Origin: Pyrobaculum calidifontis JCM 11548
Lineage (GTDB): Archaea > Thermoproteota > Thermoprotei > Thermoproteales > Thermoproteaceae
Length of the DNA stretch: 32,000 nucleotides
Assembly (NCBI RefSeq): GCF_000015805.1
Contig: NC_009073.1
Span: 150,001-182,000, forward strand
Reading direction: 5' to 3'
Under the pieces are notes generated by a model, which saw only the letters and a program-made list of their open reading frames with translations, was not told the origin of the DNA and did not search any database. Positions 4,093 through 31,845 of the stretch are shown piece by piece. The position numbers and the translations under genes are program-made. The number at the start of each line of letters is the position of its first letter. Position 1 is the stretch's first letter.

Positions 4093-4902
4093 ATGGAGCT
4101 GAGAAAAGGCGTAAGGCTGTTGAGGGGTTCTCCCAACACCTTGGTGGTTGGGGAATACGTCGTAGACCCCGGCCAGCCGGCGGAGAGGGCGGCTGAGGTG
4201 TTGCAGGCGGCGGGCCCCGCGCCTAAGGTGTTGCTCACCCACTTCCACGCAGACCACCTCACCGCGGTGCCCCCAGGCGCCGAGGTCTACGCGCCCTGGG
4301 GCGAAGAGCTCTTCGTGGCCAGCGTCCGGGCGAGGCTCTTCTTCACCCACGGCGTTTATGTAAACAACGCGGTGTACAAGGGCGGAGATATAAAGGTGTC
4401 CGGCGTGGTGAAAGACGGCGAGAGGGTAGGCCCCTTCGAGGTAGTGTCTCTGCCCGGCCACACTTTTGGCCACGTGGGGTACTACGTAGAGGGGGTGCTG
4501 TACGCCGGCGACGCGTTGTTTGGGGAAAAGGTGCTCGAGAAATACGGCGCGCCCTACCTCATGGACGTAGACGCCTTTCTAGCCTCCTTGGACAAGATAA
4601 TGGCGCTTGAGCCAGAGGTCTTGGTGATGGGCCACGGCCCCGTGGTAGGTAGCCGGAAGAGGGCGGCGGAGCTGATTGAGGCAAATAGGCGCTACGTGGA
4701 AAGGGCTGTGGAGGCCGTGGCCAAGCTGTTGCCCGGCGACTTGACTAAGCTGGCCGTGGGCTTGTTGAAGGAGGTGGGTGGGGAGAGGGGGTGGGAAAAT
4801 GTGCTACTGACGATGACCACGGTTAGGGCTATCTTGTCTAAGCTGTCTAGCGAGGGGCGTGTTTACTTAGATGAAGAGGGCACTTGGAGGAGTAATCTAT
4901 AA
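4093..4902 (+). CDS. MBL-fold metallo-hydrolase
   Basis: Internal ATG at 4093 (MELRKGVRLLRG...) of track ORF 3748-4902; the upstream part is antisense to the DUF1028 gene. Motifs [18 protein letters not shown] and GDALF are present. Confidence 0.75.
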   Translation: MELRKGVRLLRGSPNTLVVGEYVVDPGQPAERAAEVLQAAGPAPKVLLTHFHADHLTAVPPGAEVYAPWGEELFVASVRARLFFTHGVYVNNAVYKGGDIKVSGVVKDGERVGPFEVVSLPGHTFGHVGYYVEGVLYAGDALFGEKVLEKYGAPYLMDVDAFLASLDKIMALEPEVLVMGHGPVVGSRKRAAELIEANRRYVERAVEAVAKLLPGDLTKLAVGLLKEVGGERGWENVLLTMTTVRAILSKLSSEGRVYLDEEGTWRSNL

Positions 4903-8964: not shown

Positions 8965-10820
8965 TTCGGTTTGTTACTTTCAGCGAGGTCCCCCTACAAA
9001 GTTATAAACAGCGACTTTTTAATGCCGCGGAGCGGCAGAGATATGTCGCCGTCTAAAGTAGCTGGAGACGGCTGGGACGAGCTCTGCCGACACCTGCGGA
9101 ATATCCACCATCGCTACATGGAACTTGCTAGGTTTCATAGCGAGAGGTGCAACTTCCCTGGGGCCCATTGTAAGCGGCCGTGGGGCAGGGAGTACACAGA
9201 GGATGATCTGAAGCTGATGTGGAAGTACATAGAGTACACAGAGCCTCTGTGTTGCAAACTGATGAAAGGGCTGGCGGGGGTAGAGTATAGGATAAGAGAG
9301 CTTGGGATAGAGAGCCTTAAGAGACATGGTGGCTTAGTCAAAAGGTCGGTGGCGCACAGCGAGATTACAAAGTGGCACCTAAATAAGCCGGTGCTTGTTT
9401 ATCTAACGCTATTGGACACGGAGATGCGTGTCACGTGGAGAGAACTTGACGAGACGTCGCTACGGAGTCAGCAGAAGGAGTTTATGCAATTTGTGGATGG
9501 GGCTCATGGTGCCAGGGATACGAGGGTGGGAGTCTTCGATATAGATGTGGACTACAAGAGACTGTGGCTTGAGATACCGCTAGTAGAGCCGGTATCGCGC
9601 ATGTTGGGCCAGAGAGATAGGGCGCCTGTGGCGTTGTTTAGAAACTTGGGCTGGTTGCTCAGTGACGATAGACGAGGTAGCTTGAAGCATAGTGCCAGTA
9701 ATCCTGGCCAAATTGCCTTACGGCTTTTTGACTGGATTGCCTTGGCGAAATACGCCATTGAAGTATTGAACTTATCCCCTAATAAGCCTCTGGTATTTAA
9801 GCTGGCGGTCCGCCAAGCCACAAAGACTGTGATGAGCATAAGCCCTACAGTGGAAATGTGGCCGGTCGGCACAGCGGCTGAGGTCATTAGGGGTCTCTAT
9901 AAGTGGTTTGGAATTACGCTGGGCAGAACGGAGGGAGTGCTCGTGCGGGGCTACGCCGTGCTAAAGGCGTTGAGGGAGGCGGCGTTTAAAAGGAATGGCA
10001 GAGTGTACGTGGTTGACGACGCCGGCGCTTGGATTGCCTTCAGCAACGCCGTGGGGACGCTCGTGCTGGGGGATGGCAATATGTATAGGACAGAGCTGAG
10101 AATTGCGGCAAAAACTACGCCGAAGAAGACGTTTAAGGGGGAGACTTCTCTGGCGAGTGAACTAGCCGAGGCTGTAAAAGGTATTCTCGCGGGGCCATTT
10201 ATACGTCTCAGGCCGTGGCACATGCGTCTCCTACTGCCTATTGCGCCGAGCCCTGCGTTTGGGAAAGCTTTGAATCTTTACACGTCGCTGGCTAGAAACC
10301 CTGTAGCGGCCCTTGTTGAACTAGGTAATGCTAAATATCTACTTTACCGTTATGATAACAGATTTGGGGTAAAAGGCGTAACAGCTGTCGAATTGTACGA
10401 AACGTTGAAGAAATTAGATATAGAGGTAAAGCTAAGGGGCAACGCGGTCAAATTTACGCCAAAACAGCTAGAGGAATTAGCGCAGAGAGGTGTCTCCGTA
10501 CGGTTTTTAGACGAGATAGAAAAGGTGGCGGCCAGAGAGATGATCAGGAGGTTAGAGAAGGCTAAGAAGAGGGCTGGCAGGGCGATGAAGCCGCAACTCG
10601 ATGTCGAGTCTGTTAGGCGTGTGTTAGTAGAGATGGCAAAGATCGCCAGAATCATTGTAGCACAGTACAAGCGCGGAGAGTACATCAGGATAATTCCCCA
10701 TGATAAGACAAAGGCGTGCGAAATAAAGGCTATGCTTTTGTCTGTGGGCATAAGGAGTTCGCTATTACGGCATAAAGGAGAGGTGAGGGTATATGAAAAG
10801 AGATCCCTAGAAATAATCAA
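8965..10820 (+). mobile_element. Candidate single-gene cassette (PaREP2-like gene with its own TATA box) between direct repeats
   Basis: Bracketed by the 13/15 direct repeat. Contains TTATAAA (9002-9008) and the whole conserved part of the gene. Codon usage is visibly more A/T-ending than in neighbouring genes, especially in the 3' third. The similarity I could trace to the second copy stops at 10818. Mobility is inferred, not shown. Confidence 0.3.
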
Positions 10821-10866
10821 AACGGCTTTGCTCTCCATAAAGGCTGAAGCCCCGGCCGGGATTTGA
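9043..10866 (+). CDS. Large conserved hypothetical protein, PaREP2-like multi-copy family (paralog 1), with two LAGLIDADG-like motifs
   Basis: Alignable over its full length with 28359-30191; roughly half the positions are identical in the blocks I aligned by eye (e.g. FRNLGWLLSDD, RLFDWIALA, DWFGITLG, GAWIAFSNAV, WHMRLLLP, IRIIPHDK). ATG at 9043 is chosen because both paralogs then begin about 25-26 aa before the shared ELARF block, and TTATAAA at 9002-9008 predicts a TSS near 9030. The track's TTG at 8926 and ATG at 9022 are less likely. The stop TGA (10864-10866) lies inside the antisense tRNA-Cys. Confidence 0.8.
   Translation: MSPSKVAGDGWDELCRHLRNIHHRYMELARFHSERCNFPGAHCKRPWGREYTEDDLKLMWKYIEYTEPLCCKLMKGLAGVEYRIRELGIESLKRHGGLVKRSVAHSEITKWHLNKPVLVYLTLLDTEMRVTWRELDETSLRSQQKEFMQFVDGAHGARDTRVGVFDIDVDYKRLWLEIPLVEPVSRMLGQRDRAPVALFRNLGWLLSDDRRGSLKHSASNPGQIALRLFDWIALAKYAIEVLNLSPNKPLVFKLAVRQATKTVMSISPTVEMWPVGTAAEVIRGLYKWFGITLGRTEGVLVRGYAVLKALREAAFKRNGRVYVVDDAGAWIAFSNAVGTLVLGDGNMYRTELRIAAKTTPKKTFKGETSLASELAEAVKGILAGPFIRLRPWHMRLLLPIAPSPAFGKALNLYTSLARNPVAALVELGNAKYLLYRYDNRFGVKGVTAVELYETLKKLDIEVKLRGNAVKFTPKQLEELAQRGVSVRFLDEIEKVAAREMIRRLEKAKKRAGRAMKPQLDVESVRRVLVEMAKIARIIVAQYKRGEYIRIIPHDKTKACEIKAMLLSVGIRSSLLRHKGEVRVYEKRSLEIIKTALLSIKAEAPAGI
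10821..10835. repeat. Right copy of the 13/15-nt direct repeat
   Basis: AACGGCTTTGCTCTC begins 3 nt after the last nucleotide of the block shared with the second paralog (GAAATAATC, 10810-10818). Confidence 0.45.
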
Positions 10867-10958
10867 ACCCGGGACTTCCGCGCCGGCGGCTCTACGGGTC
10901 TGCAGCCCGCCGCTCTAGTCGGATAATTAGCCCTCTAACCACGCTGAGCTACCGGGGC
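10848..10958 (-). tRNA. tRNA-Cys (anticodon GCA) with two non-canonical introns
   Basis: Minus strand: GCCCCGG TA GCTC AGCGTGGTTA [GAGGGCTAATTATCCGACTA] GAGC G GCGGG CTGCAGA CCCGT AG[AGCCGCCGGCGCGGAA]GTC CCGGG TTCAAAT CCCGG CCGGGGC T. After removing a 20-nt D-arm insert (10916-10935) and a 16-nt variable-region insert (10876-10891), the cloverleaf is complete. TATA-like AAATTTAAAAATT lies upstream. No CCA is encoded. Intron borders are ambiguous by a few nt. Confidence 0.78.
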
Positions 10959-11184
10959 TATCTCTTTTCCTTCCTCAATTTTTAAATTTACTGCCGCGTT
11001 TCCCTAGGTTACAGGTAGCCGCCTTTAGGAGACCGGCACCATGTGTTACGTCTAGTGGAGGCAAGCCTTAGAGTCTGGCCGCTCTCGTTGTTCGCCGAGC
11101 CTCAGTGGTCATGTCATCTCTATTTTATTGCATGCCTCGATGCGAGCGAACGACTTGCGCTCTTCTGCGCGCAGTATTGGAAAA

Positions 11185-18716: not shown

Positions 18717-18842
18717 CTGGGCAGTGGTACTACGCTCTTAATAAATTTTTCCGCATAAAAGCCGGGGAACCGCCTTTCATCGGCCCGCACATCTGCGGCA
18801 CTCCGGCGGCACTCAAGAGAATAAGCAGACGCGTTAAAATAT

Positions 18843-28358: not shown

Positions 28359-30191
28359 TTAGTTTTTTGTAAATGGTGATGCCAAAATTGTTTGATAATG
28401 AATCAGCAAAAGAGCTTTGTGTAGAGGAATGTAAAGTGGGTGAAAAAAGTGGGGGGCTATCCTACGGATTATTTCTACCGACTTTTGTTCGTGTATTCTT
28501 ACCTCCTTTTTCTTGTGTAGTATTGTGGCTCTTATCCCCACTGCCCTTAGCTTGGCCGCTATTTCTTCCACCTTAGACTTGTCGTGTGGAATTATCCTGA
28601 TGTAGAGCCGGCCTCTGTCTGTAGCCGCCACTATTCTCGCCATTTTGGCCACTTCCTCTAACACCCGCCTAACGGCGTCTAAGTCGGGCGTCGGCAACGC
28701 TGGCCTAACTTCTCTCACCGCATCTTTCTCCATGTCGTTGAGGAATCTGACGGTGAAGCCACGCCTCGCCAGCTCCTCAAGCTGGGCGTAGGTGAGTAAC
28801 AACAAGTTCCTCTTGAACCTCTCCTTTATCCCAAGCCGCTCTAGGGCGTTATACAGCTCTACGGCCCTCCCCCTTCCAATCACGAACTCGCCACCGCCAT
28901 TATGTGTAAGCAGATATGTAATGCCGTTGACCTCTACTATAGCGGCCGCTGGGTAGTTTGCCAGCGTCTCAAATAGCCTGGCCGTCTTCTCCAAGGCCGG
29001 CGTAGGCTGAGTTGGCAAAAGCAGGCGCATGTGCCATGTCTGTAGTCTTACGTAGTCTCCGGCGGTTGTTCCGCCGACAGCATCGGCGAGCTCCTCCAGC
29101 AGACTCGTCTCTCCTGCCAGCGTGGCCCTGGGCGTCGTCTTAACGGCTATCCTCACCTCATACGGCAACACGTAGCCGTCGCCGACGACCAACATGTCGA
29201 CCGCGTTGCTAAAGGCAATCCACGCCCCCACATTGCTTACGACGTACATTCTTCCGTCGAGCTTAAACGCATCCTCTCTCAACGCCTTCAACGCGGAGTA
29301 GCCCCGCATTAGCACCTCCTCTGTACTTCCCAACGTTATTCCAAACCAGTCGTAGGCGACAAATAGCGCTTCGTAGGTAGCGCCTGTGGGCCACGCCTCA
29401 ACTGTGGGATTGTCGCCGTGCCTTGTCTTAGTCACCTTGCGAATTCTCAGCGTAAACGCCAGGGGCGCCTTTGGCGTAATCCCCCTCTCCATAGCGTACT
29501 CTGCTAGGGCAATCCAGTCGAACAGTCTCACCGCAACTTGGCCAGGATTACCAGCGGCATGTCCAAGGTTTTTACGCCAATCGTCACTCAACAGCCAGCC
29601 CAAATTCCTAAACAGCACAATCGGTGTCTTGTCTCTTCCGCCCAGTAGTTTAGACGCAGACTTCGGTAGCGGCACCTCAAGCCACAGCCGCTTGTACTCC
29701 TCGTCCACCTCATACGTCTCTACGGGGACGCCAGCCCGCCCAGTCTTCCTCGCCGTTTCTTCCAGCTCCTCCCCCCTCAGCCCATTGCCTATGGGCACAT
29801 CGTCGTAGAAGATGTACAATCTCTTCTCCCACAGCACTATCGTGGCGTATACTGGCTTCTTGAGGTACAGCGTCACTATCTCGTGGTCTGGCCTTGATTT
29901 GTCCGGCCTCGTCACTCCCACTCTATAGCCCTTTTCCAGTCCCTTAATCCCCAGCTCCCGGAACTTACACTCGGCCTCCGCCAGCGCCTTGATGAGATTG
30001 CCGCACAGCGACGCCGTGTCCTCAATGTACTGCCACATCAGCCGTATATCGGCTTCGGCGTAGCCGCACGCGCGGCCGGGGAGGCGGCACTTTCCACTCC
30101 TAAACCTTGCCAACTCGACATAGCGCCTGTACCCCTCCAGCTGGCGTTGACACTCCATTTCCCATATTCCTGGTTCACTTTTGCAAGCCAT
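28359..30191 (-). CDS. Large conserved hypothetical protein, PaREP2-like multi-copy family (paralog 2), with two LAGLIDADG-like motifs
   Basis: Collinear with 9043-10866. ATG at 30191 (MACKSEPGIWEMECQ...) aligns with MSPSKVAGDGWDELC... of paralog 1; the track's start at 30227 is TTG. The last ~31 aa (PHFFHPLYIPLHKALLLIHYQTILASPFTKN) have no counterpart in paralog 1 and look like read-through into flanking DNA. Confidence 0.8.
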   Translation of the reverse strand: MACKSEPGIWEMECQRQLEGYRRYVELARFRSGKCRLPGRACGYAEADIRLMWQYIEDTASLCGNLIKALAEAECKFRELGIKGLEKGYRVGVTRPDKSRPDHEIVTLYLKKPVYATIVLWEKRLYIFYDDVPIGNGLRGEELEETARKTGRAGVPVETYEVDEEYKRLWLEVPLPKSASKLLGGRDKTPIVLFRNLGWLLSDDWRKNLGHAAGNPGQVAVRLFDWIALAEYAMERGITPKAPLAFTLRIRKVTKTRHGDNPTVEAWPTGATYEALFVAYDWFGITLGSTEEVLMRGYSALKALREDAFKLDGRMYVVSNVGAWIAFSNAVDMLVVGDGYVLPYEVRIAVKTTPRATLAGETSLLEELADAVGGTTAGDYVRLQTWHMRLLLPTQPTPALEKTARLFETLANYPAAAIVEVNGITYLLTHNGGGEFVIGRGRAVELYNALERLGIKERFKRNLLLLTYAQLEELARRGFTVRFLNDMEKDAVREVRPALPTPDLDAVRRVLEEVAKMARIVAATDRGRLYIRIIPHDKSKVEEIAAKLRAVGIRATILHKKKEVRIHEQKSVEIIRRIAPHFFHPLYIPLHKALLLIHYQTILASPFTKN

Positions 30192-30490
30192 GCCCCGTCC
30201 AACACACCCCCCATGTTGAACAAACAAAGGCGCACCTCCACTCGGCGCTATCTAAGCGTCTCTGCGCTATGTGTACTTCGTCGCCACCTCAGCCACTTGC
30301 TGGACAGTGCTGTGCCGGACTCCAGCCCTACGAGGTACACCCTCCGTGTGGGAAGCGCCGCGGTGCGCTACTTCCCAGCGGCTAAGGTGGCCATAATCTT
30401 CGCCAAGACGCCCAGCGAGGCAGAGGCCGTAGCCGCGCTGTGTAAGCCACCATAATTCATCCAGAGTAATCCCATATATTGAATATTTTG

Positions 30491-30510
30491 CCTACTTGCA
30501 CGCAAGTAGG
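30491..30510. repeat. Palindrome 1: CCTACTTGC-ac-GCAAGTAGG
   Basis: Perfect 9-bp arms with a 2-nt centre. Confidence 0.9.
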
Positions 30511-30551
30511 GCGGTGTTGCTATGTCGTTTTTACGCGCCGTCGCCCCCTTC

Positions 30552-30574
30552 GCCTACTTGCATCGCAAGTAGGC
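30552..30574. repeat. Palindrome 2: GCCTACTTGC-atc-GCAAGTAGGC
   Basis: Perfect 10-bp arms with a 3-nt centre, using the same half-site as palindrome 1. Confidence 0.9.
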
Positions 30575-30605
30575 AAGGCGCCTCCCCCACCAAGAAAAAC
30601 GGCGA

Positions 30606-30625
30606 CCTACTTGCAAACAAGTAGG
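30606..30625. repeat. Palindrome 3: CCTACTTG-caaa-CAAGTAGG
   Basis: Perfect 8-bp arms with a 4-nt centre, using the same half-site. Confidence 0.9.
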
Positions 30626-30663
30626 CAACTCGTTCAATATAAGGGGGTTGGGCCTGGCGGGCC

Positions 30664-30852
30664 GTGGATCACTCGGCCGACGTGGCTAGGGCTGTGGCGG
30701 CCGGCGTCTTGGGGGTGTACATTGTGTGGAGGGCGGCGTCGGTGCTCATGGGCCGGGAGCATCTGGGCGCGGCGGGGGCGAGGTGGTTGAGGAGTTTCTT
30801 GCGTGGACCGTGGTCTTCGCCGCGGTTACGCAGTAGTTGCCCAGCGGCTTAG
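30664..30852 (+). CDS. Small hypothetical protein (62 aa), possible single-TM peptide
   Basis: GTG start about 24 nt downstream of the right TATA-like box. G/C-rich third positions. Hydrophobic core VARAVAAGVLGVYIVWRAASVLM. Weak evidence. Confidence 0.3.
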   Translation: MDHSADVARAVAAGVLGVYIVWRAASVLMGREHLGAAGARWLRSFLRGPWSSPRLRSSCPAA

Positions 30853-30896
30853 GACGTGGGAAGAAGAACTTGACGGTGGCTAGTCGGGAGCCGCAT

Positions 30897-31208
30897 GTGG
30901 AGGCGGCTGAGCGTGAGCTGACTCATAGGCTGTACTCTCTGGGCATCGACGTTGAGCCCTCCGTGTTGGCCGCCTACGTGGAGAGGTACGGCGAAAAGGC
31001 TTTCAACGCCGTGGTGAGAGATGTGGCCAAGGCCCTTGCCGCCTCGTACCGTGTGCCATACGCCGCCGGCGAGGCGGAGGAGTTGATGAAGGAAGTATGT
31101 CCTAGAACAAGCGTCAGCCGCCCTCAGGGCGGCAAAGGAGGCGGCGGCCAGGGGAGAAGACGTGAGAGAAGTCTTAAGGCACATTCTACAACAATAGGCT
31201 ATACGTAA
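30897..31208 (+). CDS. Hypothetical protein (about 103 aa) with a basic Gly/Arg-rich tail
   Basis: The part of track ORF 30837-31208 from the in-frame GTG 30897 reads VEAAERELTHRLYSLGIDVEPSVLAAYVERYGEKAFNAVVRDVAKALAASY...EELMKE and looks like a genuine helical protein. It is followed by GGKGGGGQGRRRER. A hairpin plus T-run (31209-31231) follows the stop. Confidence 0.42.
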   Translation: MEAAERELTHRLYSLGIDVEPSVLAAYVERYGEKAFNAVVRDVAKALAASYRVPYAAGEAEELMKEVCPRTSVSRPQGGKGGGGQGRRRERSLKAHSTTIGYT

Positions 31209-31345
31209 GACGGCGTTTTTAAACCGTCGTCTGCTATATGGCGGCATGTGTCTGCGCTTCAGCAAGGAAGTTGGCTAAATTCTACATGGGGCTGACTGCA
31301 AAGGAAACGTCCTTGCTTCCTTGGGAAAACTCATCGGGGGAGGGG

Positions 31346-31394
31346 ATGATGAGAGGGAACTCAGGGGACAGATGCCCGCCACCTGGCTCACTGA
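31346..31394 (+). ncRNA. Candidate C/D-box sRNA (weak)
   Basis: ATGATGA (31346-31352) and CTGA (31391-31394) are spaced to give a 49-nt unit. They are flanked directly by GGG/CCC and further by GGGGAGGGG / CCCCTCCCC complementary runs. Internal C'/D' boxes are poor (CAGATGC, GGGA). Confidence 0.25.
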
Positions 31395-31845
31395 CCCACC
31401 CCTCCCCCTCTTCACCTACAGACAGACGTATTAAAGTTTTCTCTGCCGACTAAACCTACGAGACCCACGGAAAGGGAGTAGGAGTCGGAACGACGCGCCT
31501 AAGCTAAGAACTCCATAGAATCTAGTTATGACAATTTCACCTCTCTTGATGCTTTCGTAGTGTCCGTGGCTGCAGGCATAGTTGTAGCACCTGGCGCAAC
31601 GTCTCACACGTCTAGCCATATCAAGCACGGGGCCTACATCGCCAGCTCCTCTCGGCACCAGTAGCGAACGTTCTACCGGCATTCCACGGGACACGTAGCG
31701 GCGACCTCACGTCGGTGAAGTATATAAGTGCAACCACGGCACGTTCTCTTATGGGCGGGGGCGAATCTGCGACAGCGGCCGTATATTTGCTAAGCGCCGG
31801 GACAGTGGGCAGGTGCAGCGCCTTTGGAGCCGCATCTGACAAGCC

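Follow-up and report, generated by a model that had tools for sequence, protein, structure and literature searches.

Three palindromes beside a LAGLIDADG-like gene family in Pyrobaculum: a candidate operator array

Introduction

LAGLIDADG enzymes recognize palindromic or pseudopalindromic targets of ~20–22 bp, in which two arms of ~9 bp surround a central four. I-TevI, a GIY-YIG homing endonuclease encoded in a phage intron, acts as an autorepressor at a single operator in its own promoter. To our knowledge, few regulatory sites have been defined in archaea and almost none in Pyrobaculum. In the archaeon Sulfolobus solfataricus, the Ss-LrpB control region carries three regularly spaced palindromic boxes that are bound cooperatively before the regulator's own gene (PMC1802622). 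In bacteria, the transcription factor WhiA, a descendant of LAGLIDADG homing endonucleases, occupies the promoter of its own gene (PMC3240954, PMC3781837).

Here we describe a 171-bp module of three palindromes in a 32,000-nt stretch of the Pyrobaculum calidifontis JCM 11548 chromosome (NC_009073.1, positions 150,001–182,000; hereafter the window, numbered from its first nucleotide). Among known architectures, the Ss-LrpB control region is the closest to this module. They have in common three similar, regularly spaced dyad boxes in an archaeal control region, a proposed one in the case of the module, and the spacing in the module is compatible with the same kind of binding to one face of the helix and wrapping of DNA. 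They differ in that the boxes of the module are 20–21 bp long and G+C-rich, whereas those of Ss-LrpB have 15 bp and an A/T centre, and in that the spacing of the module is wider (about 5–6 turns). Moreover, no Lrp-family gene adjoins the module, and no recognized transcription factor family, Lrp/AsnC or other helix–turn–helix (HTH), was found in the adjacent products.

The 610-aa protein encoded to the left of the module is closest to WhiA and to the classical LAGLIDADG enzymes. Its likeness to WhiA consists in a predicted LAGLIDADG-type fold, a free-standing chromosomal gene, extra domains and a site in front of its own gene that might serve autoregulation. However, WhiA has lost the catalytic residues whereas both acidic residues of the 610-aa protein are invariant; an HTH at the C terminus accounts for most of the DNA binding of WhiA, and none was detected in the 610-aa protein; and the latter, an archaeal protein of a family of about 600 aa, has no match to the Pfam WhiA model. 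Sites of the I-CreI, I-DmoI and I-OnuI classes resemble the palindromes in size and in their layout of 8–9 bp, a centre of ~4 bp and again 8–9 bp, and the 610-aa protein has two LAGLIDADG-like motifs and structural matches to these enzymes. Unlike their genes, the 610-aa gene is outside any intron or intein and leaves its presumed target uninterrupted, and its product is two to three times larger, with no Pfam match at threshold. The mechanism considered below, a homing-type endonuclease that occupies a site resembling its target in its own promoter and does not productively cleave it, is the one known from I-TevI, although here the protein would be LAGLIDADG-like and chromosomal and the sites are three. 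A multi-operator control region linked to an undescribed archaeal LAGLIDADG-like family would be unexpected.

The three-palindrome module

Re-reading of the sequence located three palindromes with the common half-site CCTACTTG(C), set between inverted A/T boxes. The elements of the module are as follows.

30473–30489, no strand: left A/T box, CATATATTGAATATTTT, 12% GC, inverted partner of the right box
30491–30510, no strand: palindrome P1, CCTACTTGC-AC-GCAAGTAGG, 9+2+9, 20 bp
30529–30533, + strand: T5 run inward of P1, mirror of the run at 30595–30599
30552–30574, no strand: central palindrome P2, GCCTACTTGC-ATC-GCAAGTAGGC, 10+3+10
30595–30599, − strand: T5 run just after P3, GCCGTTTTTC, flagged as terminator-like by a scan and also present in the related locus L061
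30606–30625, no strand: palindrome P3, CCTACTTG-CAAA-CAAGTAGG, 8+4+8, 20 bp
30633–30643, + strand: right A/T box, TTCAATATAAG, a probable TATA element

The earlier note on this DNA had described three perfect palindromes with a shared half-site at these positions, and they are indeed present there, with P3 being perfect only as 8+4+8 (one mismatch if read as 9+2+9). The sites are 20, 21 and 20 bp long, all six half-sites within the locus are identical, and the pattern CCTACTTG-N2-6-CAAGTAGG occurs three times in the window, each time at the module, against 0.00 occurrences expected from 100 shuffles. Re-measurement of the distances between the CCTAC starts of P1, P2 and P3 returned the 62 and 53 nt given in that note; between the dyad centres there are 62.5 and 52.5 bp. 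The outer A/T repeats are inverted copies, as had been reported, with 10 of 11 positions matching between CATATATTGAA (30473–30483) and TTCAATATAAG (30633–30643), and exactly 7 nt separate each box from the palindrome nearest to it. The symmetry of the module extends to 48-nt arms (30471–30518 and 30598–30645) that are 77% complementary. The spacers between the palindromes have 61% GC, so that the sole A/T stretches are those of 11–17 nt.

An identical sequence is present in three independent public contigs of metagenome or mock-community origin. The search for dispersed copies of the palindrome that the earlier note had suggested was run on representative genomes, one per species, of 185,579 species, a set in which the window's own stretch is evidently masked. 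The exact 9-N2-4-9 palindrome gave 48 single scattered matches there, none of them in an archaeon, Pyrobaculum included, and it had no match in viral contigs. A pattern search of the window revealed no second copy of the module. In what could be searched, the module is single-copy and not a dispersed repeat. A CRISPR-like mini-array was ruled out, there being only three repeats, which are of unequal length and palindromic, and no cas genes nearby.

Homologous modules in related loci

The loci of nine relatives of the 610-aa gene were compared with the window. A homologous three-dyad module was found upstream of the gene in L055, L059, L060, L061, L067 and L068, all of which have genes at least 71% identical to it, and in all six relatives it has the same place and orientation with respect to the ~600-aa gene as in the window. 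The module is absent from the more distant paralogs, namely those of L056 and L057, P. calidifontis P0025 and the second family member of the window (paralog 1); therefore, autoregulation through such sites would not be a trait of the whole family.

The arm sequences vary by locus (CCTACTTGC, CCTACCCGTG, CCATATGC, CCTATA and CCCATCTG), with dyad symmetry being retained. L061, which is a different chromosomal locus, has three good dyads of 21 bp each with the half-site GCCTACCC(G), its type of site being CCTACCCGTG-A-CACGGGTAGG. In the five other loci, the central dyad takes the forms CCATATGC-CTT-GCATATGG and CCTATA-G-TATAGG. In these five of the six relatives the outer dyads show partial decay, and the three-site array is therefore not universally maintained; L067 retains a perfect outer dyad, CCCATCTG-GTTG-CAGATGGG. 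Symmetry is best retained, with other arms, at the central (P2) position, where six of the seven loci have at least 7 of 10 complementary pairs (null probability 0.024, from random 23-mers of the window). The degenerate motif CCYAYNTG-N2-6-CANRTRGG was found at these modules only, across about 130 kb of Pyrobaculum loci.

Centre-to-centre spacing of the dyads is 61.5–64 bp in all six relatives, even though the spacer sequences are only about 50% identical. The single deviation is the 52.5 bp in the window, which is 10–11 bp, i.e. one helical turn, shorter. An array of sites on one face of the helix that binds one symmetric protein would be predicted to show just such features: spacing kept in whole turns of duplex DNA, half-sites that are identical within a locus, and arms that vary jointly from one locus to the next.

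The adjacent 610-aa protein and its family

The only gene that consistently adjoins the module, a candidate for the binder's gene, encodes the 610-aa LAGLIDADG-like protein.

28359–30191, − strand: 610-aa LAGLIDADG-like gene, product a putative binder of the module

It had been taken for a PaREP2-like paralog. No match to Pfam PaRep2a or PaRep2b was obtained with any of 48 family members, and the protein appears LAGLIDADG-like instead; at threshold, it belongs neither to PaREP2 nor to any curated Pfam LAGLIDADG family. The family is narrow. The first search retrieved 108 proteins, and when 1.84 billion protein representatives were searched with a profile, no more than 80 came up as relatives or fragments, every one of this Pyrobaculum-type family; a paralog 48% identical to the 610-aa protein is encoded in the window itself (9043–10866, + strand). 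Nothing was found for the family in Pfam, NCBIfam, PHROGs, PDB sequence searches, or phage or plasmid collections. Neither the protein nor its separate domains matched the Pfam LAGLIDADG models even at E ≤ 10, and sub-threshold matches to LAGLIDADG_3 (E 0.004–0.08) were confined to three distant relatives.

Two motifs, NLGWLLSDD (197–204) and LVxGDG (334–339), which are about 135 residues apart, are invariant in the 48 sequences. The putative catalytic residues Asp204 and Asp338 are invariant in the family alignment and Lys351 is nearly so. In the AlphaFold model (pLDDT 86), both motifs end predicted helices (191–200 and 321–338) that are followed by beta hairpins. Foldseek searches of the PDB with the whole model and with residues 180–450 placed LAGLIDADG enzymes on top, with weak scores (E 0.2–0.5, TM 0.25–0.41); the matches were I-DmoI, bI3 maturase, I-WcaI, I-OnuI, PI-SceI and WhiA. 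In BFVD, the domain model matched LAGLIDADG/I-SceI-type endonucleases and intein-bearing proteins with probabilities of 0.85–1.0 and E values of 6e-4 to 5e-2. Predicted structure and motifs together lend moderate support to a LAGLIDADG-type fold, which we consider quite probable.

The ~600-aa family (in the window, 28359–30191 on the − strand and 9043–10866 on the + strand; in the relatives, L055–L068) is restricted to Pyrobaculum, has several paralogs per genome and four conserved N-terminal cysteines, and is undescribed, its members being annotated as hypothetical. Its genes often have a tRNA gene directly at the 3′ end, for which the following tRNA-Leu genes are examples.

L061, 4626–4710: tRNA-Leu at the 3′ end of the family gene
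L057, 7867–7951: tRNA-Leu at the 3′ end of the family gene

Likewise, paralog 1 of the window is abutted at ~10850–10960 (− strand) by a probable intron-containing tRNA that was missed by ARAGORN. Such tRNA genes at the 3′ ends of ~600-aa genes may indicate hot spots of integration or rearrangement. Downstream of the 610-aa gene, the metagenome or mock-community contigs L050, L053 and L054 break off some 100 nt past the SDR gene (window ~28290), and in L059 an inserted ABC-transporter operon separates SDR from the 600-aa gene; these contig breaks and the insertion point to a variable or repeat-rich junction.

Genes and promoters on the two sides

The right side of the module is occupied by two short reading frames.

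30664–30852, + strand: small divergent gene, decayed; the N-terminal 38 aa match a ~100-aa family (P0190–P0193)
30897–31208: 103-aa ORF, frameshifted copy of a 94-aa gene

The 62-aa ORF that starts at GTG 30664 has homologues of 56–102 aa (P0190–P0194) that all have this start codon in common; P0190–P0193 begin with MDLS or VDLS, and P0194, like the window ORF, with MDHS. Since the start codon is conserved in the homologues, GTG 30664 is, by sequence comparison, the genuine start of this small gene family. In the window, one G is missing from the G-run near 30773–30777, the remainder of the family sequence is read in the frame of ORF 30726–30836, and there is a TAG (30834) where the relatives have Tyr. 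Because of the frameshift and this stop, the small gene is probably a pseudogene in this genome. The counterpart of the 103-aa ORF is the 94-aa gene at L069 6001–6285, downstream of a 1111-aa gene, and DNA similarity to L069 begins abruptly at 30888, a position that by this criterion marks a rearrangement junction. Thus, with both ORFs frameshifted, the right flank appears as a junction of decayed fragments. The products of these two ORFs, which had been put forward as candidates for binding the palindromes, were rejected as binders, both being frameshifted copies of other genes; no regulator match was found for the 610-, 62- or 103-aa products in Pfam, NCBIfam or PHROG.

Relatives have, on the module's far side, a conserved ~100-aa gene of unassigned function (...LRLKWRGLLGTRAFG...SWLVFCVDYW).

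L055, 5188–5493: ~100-aa far-side gene
L059, 3750–4052: ~100-aa far-side gene
L060, 4061–4360: ~100-aa far-side gene
L067, 2392–2697 and 2908–3213: ~100-aa far-side genes

This gene has its own TATA (CCCAATATAAG) in the relatives and is absent from the window, so that the ~100-aa protein of L055-type loci was rejected as a universal binder.

The A/T boxes had been placed about 20–24 nt from the start codons on either side. Measured from the centre of the box, the distance to the start codon is 26 nt for the right box (to GTG 30664) and only about 18 nt for the left one (to ATG 30460; 12 nt from edge to edge). The two sides are therefore not equivalent. Judged by what is generally known of TATA-to-start spacing for leaderless mRNAs in archaea, a rightward leaderless promoter at the right box is plausible because of the 26 nt that separate it from a conserved start. 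The left box could be a TATA-like element for leftward transcription with no conserved start behind it. The 30-aa ORF opened by ATG 30460 does exist, but it finds no support as a leftward gene: the syntenic relative L055 lacks most of this stretch, the ORF is not conserved, and the left box is situated too near to its ATG.

The leftward transcript had been expected to run into a 610-aa gene with no TATA box of its own. That view did not hold up, as there is a conserved element immediately before the gene.

30192–30236, − strand: proximal element, about 45 nt directly upstream of the ATG of the 610-aa gene

The DNA sequence of this element is almost invariant among all the close paralogs, even at L057, which has no module; therefore, the 610-aa gene has a proximal element of its own. 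In-frame stops within this stretch in L059 and L061 make it non-coding, and it is probably the core promoter or leader of the 610-aa gene. A metagenome scan with its conserved 26-nt pattern found the L055 contig only.

Interpretation of the module

On balance, we regard the 171-bp module as a cis-regulatory array of protein-binding sites (operators) in the divergent control region of the 610-aa gene (leftward) and the gene that starts at GTG 30664 (rightward), and we hold this reading to be somewhat more probable than all others taken together. It rests on the sites being real, non-random, single-copy and conserved beside one gene family. Of the bidirectional promoter with three operators proposed in the earlier note, the operators thus survive as the best reading and the rightward promoter as a plausible one, and the leftward 30-aa ORF falls away. 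Three dyad sites with identical half-sites would bind the same two-fold-symmetric or pseudo-symmetric DNA-binding protein. With 5 and 6 helical turns between the centres of P1–P3, the array would present all its sites on one face of the helix, so that the protein could bind cooperatively, bridge the sites or wrap the DNA. A distance of 7 nt separates each outer site from its A/T box, and it is there that the BRE, the promoter element to which TFB binds, would be expected; a protein on the outer sites would therefore control whether the archaeal initiation factors TBP and TFB can reach the promoter, on the right side at least. Both the binding of a protein to these sites and the regulation of transcription by such binding are what we infer. 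Several features argue against an array: a rigid dimer would not easily accommodate lengths of 20, 21 and 20 bp, the 610-aa gene has a conserved proximal element of its own, and the rightward gene is frameshifted here.

As to the binder, the adjacent LAGLIDADG-like protein is a tentative candidate, as an autoregulator. The 8-4-8 layout of the sites fits what the LAGLIDADG class recognizes, a match that is suggestive only of a link between this protein and P1–P3. It is conceivable, at similarly modest odds, that the ~600-aa Pyrobaculum family, with its two LAGLIDADG motifs and intact catalytic residues, recognizes its own upstream palindromes in one subclade, either as an autoregulator or as a nuclease that cuts the locus and triggers gene conversion or rearrangement. 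The module offers a compact and testable case, with three sets of identical half-sites in helical phase and with natural variants, at the related loci, in which the two arms have changed jointly. Were the neighbour the binder, it would be the first archaeal LAGLIDADG-type protein found to work at its own promoter, and a lineage-specific multi-copy family now annotated as hypothetical would gain a function.

Two other readings accept the dyads as functional and assign them to different agents. The palindromes might form hairpins in RNA or single-stranded DNA on the strand of the 610-aa gene, as parts of a long 5′ leader or a small RNA or as hairpin-plus-T-run terminators that insulate the divergent units. 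Arms that change on both sides between loci would suit such hairpins, and so would the terminator-like GCCGTTTTTC that follows P3 on the gene-sense strand in the window and in L061. At non-Watson–Crick positions of that strand, T-G exceeds A-C by 18 to 8, counts that are phylogenetically non-independent and are accompanied by 42 other mismatches. A single strand of the module folds far better than shuffles (z = −6.8 and −7.5), but this is a trivial consequence of its inverted symmetry. Hairpins would not need the six identical half-sites seen in the locus or spacing kept to whole helical turns of the duplex, the loops of P1 and P2 would measure only 2–3 nt unless the stem opens, a leftward promoter at the right box would start inside P3, and the module has no Rfam match at gathering thresholds or at E ≤ 1; this reading seems unlikely to us. 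We give even less credence to the palindromes as cleavage or homing targets of the adjacent LAGLIDADG-like endonuclease, the breaks driving gene conversion or rearrangement of the locus in a manner comparable to that of HO at the yeast MAT locus. Sites of 20–21 bp with arms of 8–9 bp and a centre of 3–5 bp do have the size and layout of LAGLIDADG targets, the putative catalytic residues are invariant or nearly so, the three sites are homogenized within the locus, and the right flank is a patchwork of frameshifted fragments in a locus rearranged between relatives. However, intact sites beside the enzyme's own gene would be self-destructive, and homing endonuclease genes, as far as we know, interrupt their own target site, which the 610-aa gene does not; besides, the activity is putative and the fold assignment is of moderate strength.

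A replication origin or iteron region, be it one of the chromosome's multiple origins or that of a captured element, would likewise show repeated inverted sites of the protein-binding type flanked by short A/T stretches, and the host has four mapped origins (PMC5333045). Nevertheless, the plasmid- or virus-type origin offered in the earlier note as an alternative is very improbable: the G+C-rich spacers and short A/T stretches leave no AT-rich unwinding element, no initiator gene (orc1/cdc6, whiP or rep) was found in the window or among the genes called on the extended contig, the module accompanies one gene family to different chromosomal loci (L061 versus L055), and searches of phage and plasmid collections returned nothing for the 610-aa protein. 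The lowest probability of all, a very small one, goes to a MITE or another mobile element bounded by terminal inverted repeats, or to a functionless relic of an inverted duplication. The partly complementary 48-nt arms would be in keeping with such an element or relic, but the MITE offered in that note fails on copy number, no other copy being present in the window or in any representative genome, and the flanks (...GTAATCC on the left, GGTTGGG... on the right) show no target-site duplication. In the relatives, moreover, the module has a fixed place and orientation beside the same gene with its spacing conserved. The operator array thus remains the reading that we prefer.

Small RNA-like elements in the window

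To the right of the module, at ~31335–31410, the window has a repeated element, GGGGGAGGGG-ATGATGA...CTGA...CCCCTCCCCC, that resembles a C/D-box sRNA with a long terminal stem. It has no Rfam match and folds no better than shuffles (z = −0.95). In syntenic relatives the element is present in two copies with opposite orientations.

L055, 3639–3662 (− strand) and 4396–4419 (+ strand): C/D-box-like element
L059, 2184–2207 and 2945–2968: C/D-box-like element

Farther to the left, just upstream of a ribosomal protein cluster, the window encodes the H/ACA-type sRNA PyrR204 (18757–18814, − strand; Rfam RF02802, 72.7 bits), which belongs to a Pyrobaculum-specific family.
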